From: an uncultured Gemmatimonadota bacterium
GTDB lineage: Bacteria; SM23-81; DAOVCL01
DNA length: 64,000 bases
Assembly (NCBI GenBank): GCA_964626665.1
Contig: CAZVGK010000015.1
Location: 1-64,000 of the forward strand
Direction of reading: 5' to 3'
This document shows, in pieces, positions 58,647 to 64,000 of the stretch. Under the pieces are notes generated by a model that saw only the letters and a program-made list of their open reading frames with translations, was not told where the DNA came from and ran no database searches. Position 1 is the stretch's first letter; the number at the start of each line of letters is the position of its first letter. Both the position numbers and the translations under genes were made by a program.

Positions 58647-59537
58647 ATGGCAAAAAAGGGCGATTGGGCAGCAGGGATCATCATTGGCGTAAGCTTCCTG
58701 TTGGTGGGAGCCCTATTCCTCTTGATGTTGATTGGGCTTGCCGGTCAGAGGGGAACCCTCAACCTGCCAAGCTGGGGGAAGAAGATAGCCCTGGTTGAGG
58801 TAAATGGAGTCATCAATAACCCGCAGCTTATTGTGAAACAGATTAGGTCTTACAAAAAGGACGACTCTGTTCTTGGAATGGTCTTAAGGATTAACAGCCC
58901 AGGGGGAGGGGTGGCCGCAGCCCAGGAGATTTACGAGGAGCTGCAAAAGTTCAAGGAGGCTGGGAAAGGGTTGGTAGCTTCCTTCGGTTCTGTGGCTGCA
59001 TCAGGAGGTTACTATATTGCCTGTGCGACAGATTCCATAGTAGCCAACCCCGGATCCATTACAGGCAGCATCGGGGTTATTTACGAGTTCCCCAATGCTC
59101 AAGAGCTATTAAAGAAGATCGGATTGAGATTTGAAGTTGTGAAAAGTGGTAAGTATAAAGATATTGGCTCCCCCTCCCGAAAGTTAACTCCGGAGGAGAG
59201 GAAGCTCCTGCAATCCGTGATAGATGATGCCTACAATCAGTTTATCGGGGCCATCTGTCAGGGAAGAAACCTGAATGAGACTAAGGTAAGAAGGATAGCT
59301 GATGGAAGGATATTCACGGGGAACCAGGCCAAGAAGATAGGGTTGGTGGACCGGTTAGGAGATTACCACGATGCTATCCTTCTAGTGGCCAGGATGTGTG
59401 GAATAAGGGGAGAGCCGAAGACGGTTAAGTTAAGGAGAAGGAGGCCGGGAATCCTTGATCTCCTTTTCAGCAAGCTCAAACTCTGGGGACCGGAGGGGAA
59501 TTACAGAACCCCCAGCTTACAATACAGGTTTCAATGA
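58647..59537 (+). CDS. sppA: Signal peptide peptidase SppA (36K type)
   Basis: RINSPGG, AASGGYYIA, TGSIGV, KSGKYKD. Confidence 0.95.
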   Translation: MAKKGDWAAGIIIGVSFLLVGALFLLMLIGLAGQRGTLNLPSWGKKIALVEVNGVINNPQLIVKQIRSYKKDDSVLGMVLRINSPGGGVAAAQEIYEELQKFKEAGKGLVASFGSVAASGGYYIACATDSIVANPGSITGSIGVIYEFPNAQELLKKIGLRFEVVKSGKYKDIGSPSRKLTPEERKLLQSVIDDAYNQFIGAICQGRNLNETKVRRIADGRIFTGNQAKKIGLVDRLGDYHDAILLVARMCGIRGEPKTVKLRRRRPGILDLLFSKLKLWGPEGNYRTPSLQYRFQ

Positions 59538-59762
59538 GGTTTCCCTGTATCTCCCCATGAGTTCTTGAATCTTAGCTCTTACAGAACCCAAGGTTCTAAA
59601 AGCCTCTCGCCTGATTAAAGACCAGAGGGGAGGTAAGATATTATTGCCTTTGTGGGAACACGATTTTCGTTGGGGGCAGGCTCCTCCGGAGTTACCCCTT
59701 GTTCGCTCGGTAAAAGCAGAGACTGAGCATCTGCGGTTAACACCTAAAAAGGAGGTTCAGCA

Positions 59763-60038
59763 ATGACCAAGGCTGACTTGGTAAGGGAAGTGGCTGAGGA
59801 GACGGGGTTTACAAAATCCGATACGGCGCTGATGCTAGAGGCCTTTCTTCAAGCAATCAAAAACGGCTTGAAGAAACACAAAAGGATAGATATTAGGGGC
59901 TTGGGTAGTTTGGGGGTAAAAATGAGGAAAGCCAGGCAAGCCAGGAACCCGCGCACTGGTGAGGCAGTTCCAGTTCCCAAAAGGTATGTGCCGGTTTTCA
60001 AGGCTTCCAGAAAGCTAAAGACCCTGGTGGCCAAGTAA
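59763..60038 (+). CDS. HU/IHF family DNA-binding protein
   Basis: MTKADLV, RGLGSL, ARNPRTGE, VPVFKAS. Confidence 0.95.
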   Translation: MTKADLVREVAEETGFTKSDTALMLEAFLQAIKNGLKKHKRIDIRGLGSLGVKMRKARQARNPRTGEAVPVPKRYVPVFKASRKLKTLVAK

Positions 60039-60055
60039 GAGTGCACTTTTTCTAG

Positions 60056-60087
60056 TAGAAGCAGGGCAGATGGCTGCCCTGCTTCTA
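60056..60087 (+). terminator. Hairpin after the HU gene
   Basis: TAGAAGCAGGGCAG-ATGG-CTGCCCTGCTTCTA. Confidence 0.6.
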
Positions 60088-60268
60088 CCAATTATCCCAA
60101 ATTATGCATTAAACACCGAAAATCGCTGAAATTCCAAAAGATCCAAAGAAAGGATTTCACCTAAAAAATGAAATGTTACTTTCTGCAAATCCCTGATATT
60201 TCAGTGGTTTCGGTGTCATTTAGTGTTTTCTCGCATAATCTAGGGTTAAATATCGAGGGGAGGGAAAA

Positions 60269-60437
<169 letters not shown>

Positions 60438-60448
60438 CTCTCATCTCT

Positions 60449-60532
60449 GCCGAAGTGGCGGAACTGGTAGACGCGCTGCGTTCAGGGCGCAGTGCCCGTA
60501 TGGGTGTGGGGGTTCAAATCCCCCCTTCGGCA
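60449..60532 (+). tRNA. tRNA-Leu(CAG)
   Basis: GCCGAAG acceptor, CTGCG-TTCAGGG-CGCAG, long variable arm. Confidence 0.96.
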
Positions 60533-61050
60533 CTGTTGTCCTTTAATGGATAGGACCAATGAGGATTTAGGGACATAAATGGTTCAATCTCCTTTTTTGG
60601 TAGGGTTCATTGTGCAAATGGGGCTTTCACTCAGTTTTACATGGGTTTATACCAATTGGCCATAGATCAAAAATCTTCCTCTAAAAATAGCTTGACAAGT
60701 GGATTTGCAGGTGTTAATCTTCATTTGGTTTGTTTTACCTTTATATCTTTTGATTTAAAAATCGTAGCGTAGCACAATTAGCATGTCTTGCCTTGGTGTA
60801 TGAAGCGATGTTTTCCTAATACCTGGTAGAAGGAGTTAATAAACAAGGTAGTTAATCGACATCCTTTTATGATTCCAATCTTAATGCCCATTCGAGGTTC
60901 ACCATCTCGTTAAGAGATGTAAAAAAAACTATATATGGACCGGCATCGAAAATTCAGTTAAAGAGGAGCGGCGCACACCCGAGCGGAGCGGCTTTGCTTG
61001 TGGTTTGGAAACCACCAAAGCCTGCATAGAAAGGGGGCGATCAAACTACT

Positions 61051-61110
61051 ATGTGGCTCCTTGATCTACTCGTTAGCTTATTAGGTAAAGGCGGCGATAC
61101 TGATTGGTAA
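61051..61110 (+). CDS. Putative 19-aa peptide MWLLDLLVSLLGKGGDTDW
   Basis: AAAGGGGG SD-like element 13 nt upstream; enclosed by an 18-bp inverted repeat. Confidence 0.5.
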   Translation: MWLLDLLVSLLGKGGDTDW

Positions 61111-61143
61111 TAGCTTTTCGATGTCGGTCCATTTTTTGTTCAC

Positions 61144-61830
61144 CACTTATCTCACCGCAAAGCCGCCAAGTTCGCAAAGGAAATAAAAAAGCAAAAGCGA
61201 AATAAAACGAATGGTTAATAACTTTTAAAAAACTTTGCGTCCTTTGCGCCTCTGCGGTTAATCTGTCCCACCGCAAAGCCACTAAGATCGCAAAGGGGGG
61301 AAAACAAAAGGAAGGAGGAATGATTAAACGAGAAGATGAATTATCAAATGAAATTATTGGATCAGCAATCGAAGTGCATCGGCATTTAGGGCCAGGATTG
61401 CTTGAATCTGCTTATGAAGAATGTCTCTGTCGAGAATTTGCTATTAATAATATTGTCTTTGAAAGACAAAAGCCTCTTCCTATAAATTATAAAGGGATAA
61501 ACTTGGACTGTGGTTATAGACCTGATCTCGTTGTAGAGAAATTGGTAATTGTAGAATTAAAGACGATCCAACAAATCGAGGCTATACATCAAGCACAACT
61601 TTTGACATATTTGAAATTATCGAATCTAAAACTGGGGTTATTAATCAATTTTAATGTTCCAGTTTTAAAGGATGGGATAAAGCGATTGGTTAATAATCTT
61701 TAAAAAACTCTGCGTCCTTTGCGGTTAATCACTTATCTCACCGCAAAGACGCCGAGATCGCAAAGGAAATAAATGAAATAATTGGTTAATAATCTTTAAA
61801 GCTTTGCGCCCTTTGCGCCTTTGCGGTGAA
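61144..61830 (+). mobile_element. Three tandem inverted-repeat units; the middle one carries the GxxExxY gene
   Basis: Each unit: CACCGCAAAG..CGCAAAG ... TGGTTAATAA..TTTAA ... CT(T/C)TGCG..TGCGGT. Confidence 0.65.
61320..61703 (+). CDS. GxxExxY protein (PD-(D/E)XK nuclease superfamily)
   Basis: EVHRHLGPGLLESAYEECL, YRPDLVVE...VELK, HQAQLLTYL, GLLINF. Confidence 0.93.
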   Translation: MIKREDELSNEIIGSAIEVHRHLGPGLLESAYEECLCREFAINNIVFERQKPLPINYKGINLDCGYRPDLVVEKLVIVELKTIQQIEAIHQAQLLTYLKLSNLKLGLLINFNVPVLKDGIKRLVNNL

Positions 61831-61842
61831 TTATTTCATCCA

Positions 61843-63198
61843 ATGAAAGAACTGCCTAAACCAGCCCAAATCTATATCTCCGGGATAATACTAATTGGCC
61901 TTGCCTATCTCGGCTACTTTTCCCAAAAGATGGTCCTCCCCCAGTGGTGGGAACTTCTCTTTTGGGCAGCACTTATTATTTTAACTAAACTCCAGTCCAT
62001 CCCACTGCCGAGAGGAGGGGCCACGATGACCGTGTCATCAGCTCTCTACTTTGCCCTCATTCCCCTTTATGGTCCCGTTGTCACCGCCTGGTTGGCAATT
62101 CCTGGCGATGTAGTTTTGAATGGTATAATAAAGAGGAAACCCCTTTATAGGGTTGAATTCAACGCCCTGCAACTCGTCATCTCCATCGGCCTAGCTGGAT
62201 TGATCTACCAACATCTTGGGGGTCAATTTATGCCCACCAACTACAGCAGAATCATTTTACCATTCACTTTTTCCGCCATAACCTTCTTTCTGGCAAATAC
62301 CGTTTTAGTGAGCATAGCTATCCACCTAATGGAGAAGATATCAACCTTGCGGATATGGTGGGTGAATTACAGTTGGACATCTGTGGACCTTTTAGCCCTT
62401 GGCCCTCTGGGTTTCCTTTTGACCCTGGTCTACATCCAAATTGGTCCCTGGGCAGTTTTCATCTGTATTGCCCCCATAATTCTGGCCCGATACTCCTTCA
62501 AGCTCTATACGGATCTTCGCCAATCTTATATCAACTCCATTACCGCTTTATCTGCCGCCTTAGATGCCAGCGATCCCTATACCCACGGTCACTCCAACCG
62601 AGTGGCGGAGAACGCCGAGAAGGTAGCCAGGCAGATGGGGCTTTCCGAGGGGAAGATCGAAAGGGTAAAATTTGCGGGACAGTTGCATGACATCGGAAAG
62701 ATAGGCCTTGATGTTAATATCCTTAATAAACCTGGCTCTTTAAATAACCAAGACTGGGAGGAGATGAAAAAGCATCCGGCCAAAGGTGCTGAGATAGTGA
62801 AGGGACTTAAGCCACCCATTTATGACATAGTTATGGCTCATCAGGAACATTATAATGGAGCAGGCTACCCGGCAAAACTAAAGGAAGACCATATACCTAT
62901 AGAGGCTCGTATAATCCATGTCTGCGATGCTTTTGAGGCGATGACCTCTGACCGACCTTACCGTTTTGCCCTTCCCCTTAGCCAAGCCGTCGACGAGTTG
63001 AGAAGGGAATCGGGAAAGCAATTTGACCCTAAGGTAGTGGAGGCCTTTCTCAAGTTAATGGAGAAGAGCGAGCTGATAATCGAGAGTGAGCGTAAACACA
63101 AGTTTACCGAGATAAAGAAAGGCCTCAGTAAAGACCTCATAGTCCTTAACGAAGCTTCACCTTCCCGGCCACAGGACGGCCAGACCACCCTGGAATGA
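61843..63198 (+). CDS. Membrane-sensor HD-GYP cyclic-dinucleotide phosphodiesterase
   Basis: Multi-TM N-terminus; DPYTHGHSNRV, LHDIGKI, HQEHYNGAGYP, DAFEAMTSDRPYR; start moved to ATG 61843, outside the repeat. Confidence 0.9.
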   Translation: MKELPKPAQIYISGIILIGLAYLGYFSQKMVLPQWWELLFWAALIILTKLQSIPLPRGGATMTVSSALYFALIPLYGPVVTAWLAIPGDVVLNGIIKRKPLYRVEFNALQLVISIGLAGLIYQHLGGQFMPTNYSRIILPFTFSAITFFLANTVLVSIAIHLMEKISTLRIWWVNYSWTSVDLLALGPLGFLLTLVYIQIGPWAVFICIAPIILARYSFKLYTDLRQSYINSITALSAALDASDPYTHGHSNRVAENAEKVARQMGLSEGKIERVKFAGQLHDIGKIGLDVNILNKPGSLNNQDWEEMKKHPAKGAEIVKGLKPPIYDIVMAHQEHYNGAGYPAKLKEDHIPIEARIIHVCDAFEAMTSDRPYRFALPLSQAVDELRRESGKQFDPKVVEAFLKLMEKSELIIESERKHKFTEIKKGLSKDLIVLNEASPSRPQDGQTTLE

Positions 63199-63840
63199 GG
63201 TGGCAGAAGCACTCTCCCGGTGCTGGTAGGGCTCCTGCCCTGACGGAAGATAGAATCTTCTACCCGACTTTAGTCGGGGTCTTTAGGGCTTAAGCCCTTT
63301 GGAATGCTGTGACTCCTGTCACAGCATCTGTCAACAGGAGTTACCACACTCCATAATAACCCGCACTAAAGTGCGGTAGAATCTACGTCTGTCTGCGTGA
63401 ACCTGCGATTTCTACCCGGTTTAGCCGAGGGTTTCCTCACCACGGATAACCACGGAATCACATAGAAAGATAGGGATCGGGGGTCAAGAATAACCGGCAT
63501 AAACCCCATTTTTAATTCTCAATTCTCAATTCTCAATTGCCTTCGCATTGTTACCCTGCAAAAAAAATTCTGAGAAGATCAAAAAAAGCTTGACAGGAAG
63601 TGATTTTAGCCTTATATTTACACTTGAAATTTGAAATAGCCCACAAAGTTGCGGGTTTTTTGTGCTGGTAGGGCTTTTGCCCTGACGAACAAGGCTTTTT
63701 GTGGGATGGGGAGAAACTCTAATCGAGGTTGAGGTAGCAGAACAGGGTTCTGCCACTTCGGTTGTTGCAACCAATAGTTTTTTATTCTTAATTCTACATT
63801 CTTCATTTTACATTCAAAATTCACTGTGAGGTGAGATAAG

Positions 63841-64000
63841 ATGAATAGAAAAATATGGGTTGGTTTGCTGGTCTTGGCCTTTATGCTCGGTTCTGTGAGT
63901 GGCTTCTGGTCAAAGCCAGTGGTGGCTAATACAGGTTCAGAACGCAGGGTTATGCTCTGCGCCGCTGAGCCGTGGCATAACGATTTATATCAATCAGGCA
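63841..64000 (+). CDS. 5' end of an exported protein (runs off the window)
   Basis: SD GAGGTG; MNRKIWVGLLVLAFMLGSVSG... signal peptide, open to the window end. Confidence 0.65.
   Translation, partial: MNRKIWVGLLVLAFMLGSVSGFWSKPVVANTGSERRVMLCAAEPWHNDLYQSG

Follow-up and report, generated by a model that had tools for sequence, protein, structure and literature searches.

Small membrane proteins that modulate membrane-bound sensors or enzymes include MgrB and SafA, which act with PhoQ, as well as MgtS, AcrZ and KdpF. Short open reading frames of another kind serve as leader-peptide attenuators or nascent-peptide sensors (trpL, ilvL, TnaC, ErmCL), and the known leader or arrest peptides of 5–24 amino acids (TnaC, ErmCL, the Cat86 leader) work by positioning the ribosome. 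In type I toxin mRNAs such as hok and aapA1, the two ends of the message engage in a long-distance 5′–3′ interaction, and the downstream-peptide/glutamine-II riboswitch is a structured RNA located before short open reading frames. To our knowledge, HD-GYP phosphodiesterases are the least understood enzymes of cyclic dimeric guanosine monophosphate (c-di-GMP) metabolism, and no signal is known for MASE9 or for most other MASE domains. Here we describe a structured element at positions 60935–61137 of a 64,000-nucleotide stretch of DNA from an uncultured bacterium assigned to Gemmatimonadota (contig CAZVGK010000015.1; hereafter the window, whose positions are used as coordinates throughout). The element encloses an sORF (short open reading frame) of 19 codons and precedes a gene encoding a MASE9-HD-GYP protein. 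Comparative sequence analysis leaves little doubt that this module is real and translated, and the module is very probably tied in its function to MASE9-HD-GYP.

The short open reading frame and its MASE9-HD-GYP partner gene

The gene downstream of the element (61843–63198, + strand) is predicted to encode a membrane-bound MASE9-HD-GYP c-di-GMP phosphodiesterase of 451 amino acids, counted from the ATG at 61843, a start that is backed by the N-termini of homologous proteins. The protein matched the Pfam families MASE9 (PF20972; E = 2.6e-8 and 34.5 bits, with a cut-off of 24.3 that was also exceeded in the genome search) and HD_5 (E = 1.1e-35). The His-Asp and Gly-Tyr-Pro motifs are present in the translation, and the HD-GYP His/Asp columns are invariant in an alignment of 44 rows.

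The sORF occupies 61051–61110 on the same strand, with its TAA stop at 61108–61110. The N-terminal half of the encoded peptide is hydrophobic and is followed by Gly-Lys-Gly-Gly, an acidic tail and a C-terminal Trp. At the DNA level, similarity among 40 relatives was restricted to two genomes of the same genus and, within these, to the element itself (positions 362–591 of a 591-nt query, 86–89% identity); a scan of metagenomes added one further close relative and a copy of the window's own genome. The four sequences of the genus, i.e. the window genome (G000, 3.17 Mb), the genomes G001 and G002, and the metagenome locus L018, all retain length and frame of the 19 codons. The changes between them are synonymous or conservative, one stop has changed from TAA to TGA, and the sole insertion or deletion lies between the Shine-Dalgarno (SD) sequence and the ATG. 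Across 22 pairs of sORFs of equal length from five clades, which are not mutually independent, differences at codon positions 1, 2 and 3 occurred at a ratio of 63:33:156, and the changed codons comprised 127 synonymous and 75 non-synonymous cases. Within the Actinomycetota clades, 11–12 synonymous changes stood against 2–3 non-synonymous ones (11 and 2, for example, between L040 and L065). The bias in codon position and towards synonymous change strongly indicates selection on the amino-acid sequence across the full length of the peptide. By this pattern of substitution, the sORF is a genuine coding gene under selection, as had been suggested in an initial annotation of the window, in which a hidden 19-residue peptide was proposed.

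A strict back-translated pattern of the peptide's C-terminal end was recovered in the window's genus only (three of seven genomes of the phylum and two metagenome loci, one of which represents the same genome), and the wider sORF family surfaced only when the search was performed with the HD-GYP protein. From the protein side, the membrane domain was searched against 121 relatives, yielding 18 genomes, and PF20972 against 401 relatives, yielding 29 genomes. On the same strand and 5′ of most of the MASE9-HD-GYP genes found lies an SD-preceded open reading frame of 16–36 codons with an apolar N-terminal part and a Trp at or next to its end. For counting, an sORF was considered to qualify if it was preceded by an SD sequence, encoded 8–45 amino acids with at least 50% LIVFMAWC, and had a Trp within the last four residues, rules that were set post hoc. 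Qualifying sORFs occurred on the sense strand in 22 of 35 MASE9-type HD-GYP loci, collected from unrelated genomes by protein or hidden Markov model search, compared to none on the reverse strand of the same 35 upstream regions and to 2.97% of 3500 mononucleotide shuffles. Upstream of other HD-GYP genes, only one was found at 21 loci in five genomes, and that one is an 8-residue chance reading frame. Among the 13 MASE9-type loci scored as misses, L104 carries an obvious member of the family that falls just below the hydrophobicity cut, L101 and L108 show only the C-terminal end of such a reading frame at the edge of the examined sequence, and six encode long multidomain MASE9 proteins of at least 655 amino acids. 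The initial annotation had mentioned short hydrophobic peptides with a Gly...Trp ending upstream of multi-transmembrane HD-GYP genes and proposed a scan upstream of HD-GYP homologues. That scan, now run, revealed small reading frames with Trp at or near the end across many families, and the pattern thus holds, with the association being specific to the MASE9 type.

From the RNA side, a degenerate pattern of two helix strands of the surrounding element plus its AGCG block (see below) was scanned against one genome each of 185,579 species. Of 44 loci obtained, 21 are followed on the same strand by a MASE9-HD-GYP homologue (tblastn E ≤ 3e-54), which begins about 40–770 nt, mostly 80–240 nt, further on. 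An sORF was identified by script in 20 of these loci and, as an 8-codon version, by eye in the remaining one; five of the 21 lie in genomes already known from the protein side. They belong to Candidatus Zixiibacteriota/Zixibacteria, including the window's genus, to Candidatus Eisenbacteria and to Actinomycetota including Candidatus Aquicultor, and one is labelled Gemmatimonadota. The other 23 pattern loci consist of GC-rich DNA with neither sORF nor MASE9-HD-GYP gene and are chance matches.

In all, the pair of sORF and MASE9-HD-GYP gene was found in about 42 genomes or contigs, and the position of the sORF before the gene is conserved in at least 15 families of the Genome Taxonomy Database (GTDB). 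In lineages other than that of the window, the sORF stop lies about 39–215 nt 5′ of the HD-GYP start, depending on the start codon chosen, and the partner genes encode proteins of about 415–500 amino acids. Judged by this conserved gene order, the sORF has a specific and ancient link with MASE9-HD-GYP genes of that size class. Having travelled with one enzyme family not only in Zixibacteria, Eisenbacteria and Actinomycetota but also in a dozen or more other families, the peptide gene is an obvious candidate for the missing input or regulator of MASE9. In a control search with PF20972, MASE9 was also matched in Thermotoga maritima and Thermus thermophilus. Two genomes (G004 and G006; loci L023, L024, L037 and L038) carry a more distant MASE9-like HD-GYP paralogue of 494 amino acids directly 3′ of the first gene, with one sORF preceding both.

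In peptides of this family, which have 8–36 residues, a hydrophobic helix is followed by Gly-Gly and then, after another two or three residues, by a Trp that forms the C-terminus or is adjacent to it. When 22 members were aligned, an optional Lys/Arg-rich N-terminus preceded 10–20 apolar residues, and after Gly-Gly or Ala-Gly came two or three variable positions and a near-invariant Trp, which is missing from one Actinomycetota clade. The apolar run reaches at least 15 residues in 14 of the 22 and usually follows an N-terminal Lys/Arg, as in single-pass membrane proteins. When 41 sORFs were tallied, including one script mis-pick (L021), Trp was the final residue in 29 and was followed by one or two residues in most others. 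The stop codon was UAA in 24 of the 41, among them most of the sORFs from genomes of 60% G+C or more, and UGG-UAA was a recurrent ending. An SD sequence (AAGGAGG or AAGGGGG) is located 5′ of the sORF in every aligned element, and tandem duplicates of the sORF precede the MASE9-HD-GYP gene at L033 (about 1165–1407) and L110 (about 1–185, oriented). For 16 peptides of 20–36 residues, a range just above the 19-residue window peptide, no Pfam match was obtained at E ≤ 10, and NCBIfam returned three matches only, with E values of 0.08–0.55 and scores far under the cut-offs. Two longer peptides searched against the ESM Atlas hit unnamed clusters only, below 0.9. The module adds an unannotated small-protein family, as well as an RNA motif that is absent from Rfam.

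The RNA element and its surroundings

The element is a structured unit of about 205 nt that occurs once in its own genome, the next-best match having E = 0.107. Two 18-nt arms with a single G:U pair, a T-run, a hairpin, an SD-like site and the 19-codon reading frame had been located in this region by the initial annotation, and all were confirmed at the positions given there. The arms form a long-range closing helix (P1) of 18 bp, in which the 5′ strand at 60935–60952 (core GACCGGCAUC at 60938–60947) pairs with the 3′ strand at 61115–61132 (core GAUGUCGGUC at 61120–61129), the latter starting 4 nt past the sORF stop. A repeat search of the window also reported them as an inverted-repeat pair. 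Between the 5′ strand and the sORF lie, in this order on the + strand, a degenerate first copy of a purine-rich AGCG repeat (GAGGAGCGGCG, 60963–60973), which aligns with the first AGCGRAGCG block of other elements; the conserved unpaired motif GAGCGGAGCGG (60981–60991; family consensus AGCGRAGCGG), a near-invariant block of the element alignment; an inner hairpin (60990–61022); and the SD-like AAAGGGGG (61030–61037), which is separated from the ATG by a long spacer of 13 nt. The hairpin is present as annotated, but in place of the two fully paired 7-nt arms assumed it consists of 7 bp, a 3-nt bulge, 6 bp and a 4-nt loop; its loop bases vary among the four genus members while the stems are preserved, and its sequence varies between lineages. 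Immediately after P1, a T-run (61132–61137) forms a terminator-like tail.

The RNA from 60930 to 61145 folds with a minimum free energy (MFE) of -74.3 kcal/mol, compared to -58.7 +/- 4.2 kcal/mol for 200 dinucleotide shuffles, none of which equalled it (z = -3.74). Both the closing helix and the inner hairpin occur in the MFE as well as the centroid structure, and none of 100 shuffles of the 3′ flank gave a flank helix of equal quality. A further helix of the MFE fold, pairing 60963–60969 with the first sORF codons, was dropped since it is not preserved in G002 when pairing is traced manually on the alignment. The 5′ strand of P1 begins with an ATG, but this is not conserved as a start codon, as L018 has a different first base there. 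A miniature inverted-repeat transposable element (MITE) was also considered for the inverted repeat, and was ruled out by the single occurrence of the element in its own genome.

The closing 5′/3′ stem, postulated from the window sequence at the outset, is a real covarying RNA helix. Across the family, the P1 core reads GACCGRCAUC with GRUGUCGGUC, and the two variable positions are purines opposite U, giving A-U or G-U. G/A variation is found solely opposite U, a pattern that fits pairing as RNA on the + strand only. In 25 elements, 95.7% of the cells of P1 are paired, and covariation amounts to 0.292, compared to 0.154 +/- 0.013 in shuffled alignments (0/500 reaching it); with the partner columns slid, it did not exceed 0.131. 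For 16 of the 25 rows, the search pattern had included ten of the 13 pairs, and thus only the flanking pairs constitute independent evidence. These pairs covary, one column pair occurring as AU in 6 elements, CG in 6, GC in 6 and UA in 2. In the set chosen by protein, a helix between the regions before the SD sequence and after the stop beats its shuffles (≤ 2/100) at 13 of 23 loci, and the arm sequences of P1 are unrelated in three lineages (L026, L084/L085 and L092). AGCGRAGCGG, which is unpaired, purine-rich and often present twice, occurs at 15 of 23 sORF loci and at none of 12 MASE9 loci that lack an sORF. The U-run 3′ of P1 is present in all four members of the window's genus and in some other lineages; about half of the P1 loci lack it. 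RNAalifold applied to all 25 elements recovered P1 only, and the inner helices, which are clade-specific, were assessed clade by clade. In many lineages, the sORF is thus wrapped in a conserved RNA fold, and a covarying long-range helix that encloses an entire 5′ untranslated region (UTR) and reading frame is an unusual RNA architecture.

A small hydrophobic reading frame within an mRNA that carries a long 5′/3′ helix brings to mind hok and aapA1, and a type I toxin-antitoxin system had been put forward as the alternative explanation of the locus. The peptide would then be a hydrophobic membrane toxin, and its mRNA would be held inert by 5′/3′ pairing and an antisense RNA. We regard this as highly improbable. 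The element is single copy, whereas type I loci often come in several copies, and it holds a fixed position before one gene family across phyla, in at least 15 GTDB families, a kind of neighbourhood that type I toxins are not known to have. No sigma-70-like promoter was detected on the minus strand within 60900–61200, which by itself is weak evidence, and the wobble pattern described above fits selection of the helix on the + strand alone. Moreover, the versions of 8–17 residues and the 7-residue apolar run of the window peptide would make poor pore formers.

An uncharacterised gene, here termed gene X (about 220–290 amino acids), is located directly 5′ of the element on the same strand at 12 of the 23 sORF loci. 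Its stop falls between about 30 nt before and 41 nt after the start of the P1 5′ strand, and many X proteins have a conserved C-terminal tail that is encoded by this strand. The protein family X (L022, L026–L031, L092, L093, L097, L098 and L104) is conserved, is encoded directly 5′ of the element in many phyla and has no Pfam family. In its confident structural model (pLDDT 89.7), the fold is closest to the regulatory domains with which LeuA and citramalate synthase bind Leu/Ile, and matches to folds like that of a double-stranded RNA-binding domain (dsRBD) were weak (TM about 0.2). In the window's genome, X is encoded on another contig (C6:80409-81014; L113 1480-2139, minus strand), and no element follows it on its 3′ side.

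These observations bear on a reading in which the RNA itself is functional, as a riboswitch-like or protein-binding element in which P1, the AGCGRAGCGG motif and the SD-occluding helix would sense a metabolite or a protein, perhaps X, with the reading frame being incidental or a device for loading ribosomes. Such a role would be consistent with the conservation of P1 and AGCGRAGCGG in sequence across Zixibacteria, Eisenbacteria and Actinomycetota, with the restriction of the motif to loci that have an sORF, with the position of gene X next to P1 and with the resemblance of its product to an amino-acid-binding regulatory domain. Yet the sORF is more widespread than the RNA features, as 8 of 23 sORF loci lack the motif and 10 lack a significant P1; in addition, the reading frame bears a clear coding signature and the dsRBD-like matches of X are weak. 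We therefore consider it improbable that the RNA acts on its own.

Three candidates concerning the upstream region were rejected. SppA is not a conserved neighbour, as the upstream reading frames in other lineages do not encode peptidase S49. LeuA or CimA is not the upstream gene, since X holds only the part that resembles their regulatory domain. A branched-chain amino acid (BCAA) leader, i.e. a Leu/Ile/Val-rich sORF beside a LeuA-like gene, was dismissed because the sORF is located 3′ of X, contains no codon run and ends in a conserved C-terminus that is non-BCAA. On an Actinomycetota contig (L042, 331-733), a region 5′ of gene X matched the cspA thermoregulator of Rfam below threshold (60.1 bits against a gathering score of 78, E = 8e-13).

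Between the element and the HD-GYP gene, the window contains copies of a dispersed repeat of about 110 nt (61138–61319, + strand; 38 matches in its own genome), a PD-(D/E)XK gene of the GxxExxY type (PF13366, E = 6.6e-44; 61320–61703, + strand), which is inserted and lies outside the conserved module, and further repeat copies detected by the repeat search (61704–61831, + strand). The repeat has internal inverted repeats, resembles repetitive extragenic palindromes (REP) or MITEs, and is also found between element and HD-GYP gene in other genus members. In G001, the gap holds repeat copies only and the PF13366 gene is absent; in G002 (L010 678-1180), its place is taken by a YafQ/ParE-type toxin gene and a preceding reading frame of 73 amino acids without Pfam match, which possibly represents the antitoxin. 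The different inserts at the same place suggest that the site is an insertion hotspot. In the window's genus, insertions of the dispersed repeat and the PD-(D/E)XK gene have thus separated the module from the HD-GYP gene, and the earlier proposal that removal of the repeat block would place the two next to each other was right in spirit, 61138–61831 consisting of repeat copies around the PF13366 gene. In the gene-poor stretch 3′ of the HD-GYP gene, a 26-nt direct repeat with 92% identity occurs at 63220–63245 and 63662–63687.

When 59500–64000 of the window was searched against Rfam at E ≤ 1, only tRNA-Arg(CCG) and tRNA-Leu(CAG), both upstream, were matched; the element was unmatched here and at 12 further loci. 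A 31-codon reading frame consisting nearly entirely of Lys/Arg (60269–60364, + strand; no Pfam match) lies 5′ of these tRNA genes and 3′ of an HU gene (59763–60038), and presumably resembles the tiny basic ribosomal protein bS22 (THX-like class). Two similar promoter-like sites, at 60683–60721 and 63581–63618, open with AAAAAWAGC-TTGACA, after which TAATCT or TATATT follows at a spacing of 17 nt. The site at 60683–60721 is also present in L018, about 120–210 nt 5′ of the element, and might drive transcription of the latter.

Possible action of the peptide in trans or in cis

Based on the conserved gene order and the chemistry of the peptides, we tentatively favour an action of the peptide in trans on the MASE9 sensor, although doubt still slightly outweighs confidence in this assignment. 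The peptide would partition into the membrane and modulate the MASE9 sensor domain or serve as its intramembrane ligand, thereby tuning the hydrolysis of c-di-GMP, while the RNA fold would set the amount of peptide as well as the extent of transcription and translation into the HD-GYP gene. With the sORF stop 4 nt before the P1 3′ strand, a terminating ribosome would have to unzip P1; if the sORF were not translated, P1 with its U-run would close and end the transcript. Of the 13 loci at which P1 is significant, 11 have a 3′ strand that starts 4–16 nt past the sORF stop, and given this spacing and the known size of the ribosome footprint, a ribosome at the sORF stop would have to open P1. Action in trans is favoured because selection spans the whole peptide and not only its end, because most members resemble membrane proteins in having an apolar run and N-terminal Lys/Arg, and because the sORF is tandemly duplicated at L033 and L110. 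It is further favoured because the sORF of the window's genus stays under selection despite the mobile DNA that separates it from the HD-GYP gene, and because the authors who defined MASE9 argue for a ligand bound within the membrane (bioRxiv 10.1101/2021.11.05.467447).

Several findings weigh against an action in trans. The apolar run of the window peptide comprises 7 residues and is interrupted by Asp, so that this peptide would not span the membrane as a classical helix. The Eisenbacteria versions have 17, 12 or even 8 codons and retain only the Gly-Lys-x-Gly-Trp end, which fits a nascent-peptide or cis role better, and the sole motif shared across phyla is the C-terminus beside the stop. 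On the RNA level, a terminator-like structure is usually located between sORF and HD-GYP gene with a helix strand near the stop, as in attenuators. A helix that occludes the SD sequence is significant in Zixibacteria family 2 and in Eisenbacteria, with different sequences, and not in the window's genus. Finally, the sORF is absent in six of six cases in which MASE9 proteins have at least 655 amino acids and further domains, indicating that the sORF is linked with a single orthologous group rather than with the MASE9 domain in general.

Much of this would be explained if the sORF encoded a cis-acting leader peptide in a translation-coupled attenuator. The sORF would place the ribosome on the stop codon beside the helix strand that precedes the U-run, and the released peptide would have no function. 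The strand in question would be the 3′ strand of P1 or, in other lineages, that of a local terminator hairpin; translation of the sORF would decide on continuation into the HD-GYP gene, and the C-terminal Gly-x-Gly-Trp-stop might slow release. Apart from the distance between stop and 3′ strand, the location of the conserved residues at the C-terminus and the retention of this motif alone in the 8- and 12-codon versions, the T-run after P1 in the window's genus and the covarying SD-occluding helix of the two other lineages are in line with such a leader. At L086, inspection by eye revealed the order promoter-like hexamers, sORF, a local hairpin with a U-run about 4 nt past the stop, and the HD-GYP gene 62 nt further on.

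However, purifying selection extends into the hydrophobic N-terminal part, and the position of Trp relative to the stop varies (last in 29 of 41 sORFs, otherwise followed by one or two residues), whereas an arrest motif needs a fixed geometry. The stop is mostly UAA, also in GC-rich genomes, which is the stop that is read most efficiently. No U-run follows P1 at about half of the P1 loci (L084/L085, L092 and L093, for example), and in Eisenbacteria the gap between stop and P1 amounts to 45–52 nt. Tandem copies of the sORF and the genes inserted before the HD-GYP gene in G000 and G002 are likewise difficult to reconcile with a leader. In the alignment of 22 peptides, there was no conserved run of codons for an amino acid that might be sensed, and the folds, obtained without a search dedicated to an alternative antiterminator, showed no such helix. 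We regard a purely cis-acting leader, which accounts for part of the data equally well, as a strong rival, although less likely than an action in trans; the two modes of action are not mutually exclusive.

Combined with the favoured action in trans, the RNA features allow a more elaborate, three-layered module to be envisaged, which we consider rather unlikely as a whole. An RNA sensor that encloses its own reading frame (P1, the AGCGRAGCGG repeats and the SD-occluding helix), maybe read by protein X, would gate a Trp-ended peptide, and this peptide would be the cognate intramembrane ligand of MASE9 that switches the HD-GYP phosphodiesterase. If true, a ligand would for the first time have been assigned to a MASE-type domain, and the RNA would represent a new class with a coding sequence enclosed by its closing helix.

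Comparison with described systems

No description of the module was found in the literature searched on MASE9, on small open reading frames or leader peptides of HD-GYP genes and on upstream open reading frames in c-di-GMP signalling, a search that covered sources other than subscription journals. In the accessible part of the MASE9 preprint (bioRxiv 10.1101/2021.11.05.467447), the words 'upstream' and 'peptide' do not occur. With respect to Rfam, Pfam, NCBIfam and this literature, the module is a member of no described family, yet it resembles small-protein regulators of sensors or leader-peptide attenuators.

With the downstream-peptide/glutamine-II riboswitch, the element shares a conserved RNA motif that is tied to a very short reading frame. 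In contrast to this riboswitch, it has no Rfam match (E ≤ 1; window and 12 loci), its reading frame lies inside the closing helix, and its partner gene encodes an HD-GYP protein. The hok and aapA1 mRNAs likewise contain a hydrophobic sORF in an mRNA with paired ends; they differ from the element, which is single copy, has no antisense promoter that could be found within 60900–61200 and has a neighbouring gene conserved across phyla.

The likeness to leader-peptide attenuators consists in an sORF directly 5′ of the gene, a stop that lies within a few nucleotides of a helix strand preceding a U-run, an SD sequence that is occluded in some lineages, and a conserved C-terminus of the peptide. Unlike in these systems, the terminator stem is not a local 3:4 hairpin but a helix with a span of 162 nt around the whole sORF and 5′ UTR. 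Furthermore, no codon run was found, no antiterminator was evident in folds made without a dedicated search, the whole peptide is under selection, and about half of the lineages have no U-run.

Compared to the small membrane proteins that regulate sensors, several members of the family, including that of the window, are too short or too polar to span the membrane, and the gene is located inside a conserved structured RNA. The partner is a MASE9 c-di-GMP phosphodiesterase, for which no small-protein partner was found in the literature searched. What the module has in common with these regulators is a very short hydrophobic protein that is encoded beside a membrane signalling protein and has remained unannotated owing to its size and, in many members of the family, an N-terminal Lys/Arg, an apolar run of at least 15 residues and an interfacial Trp.

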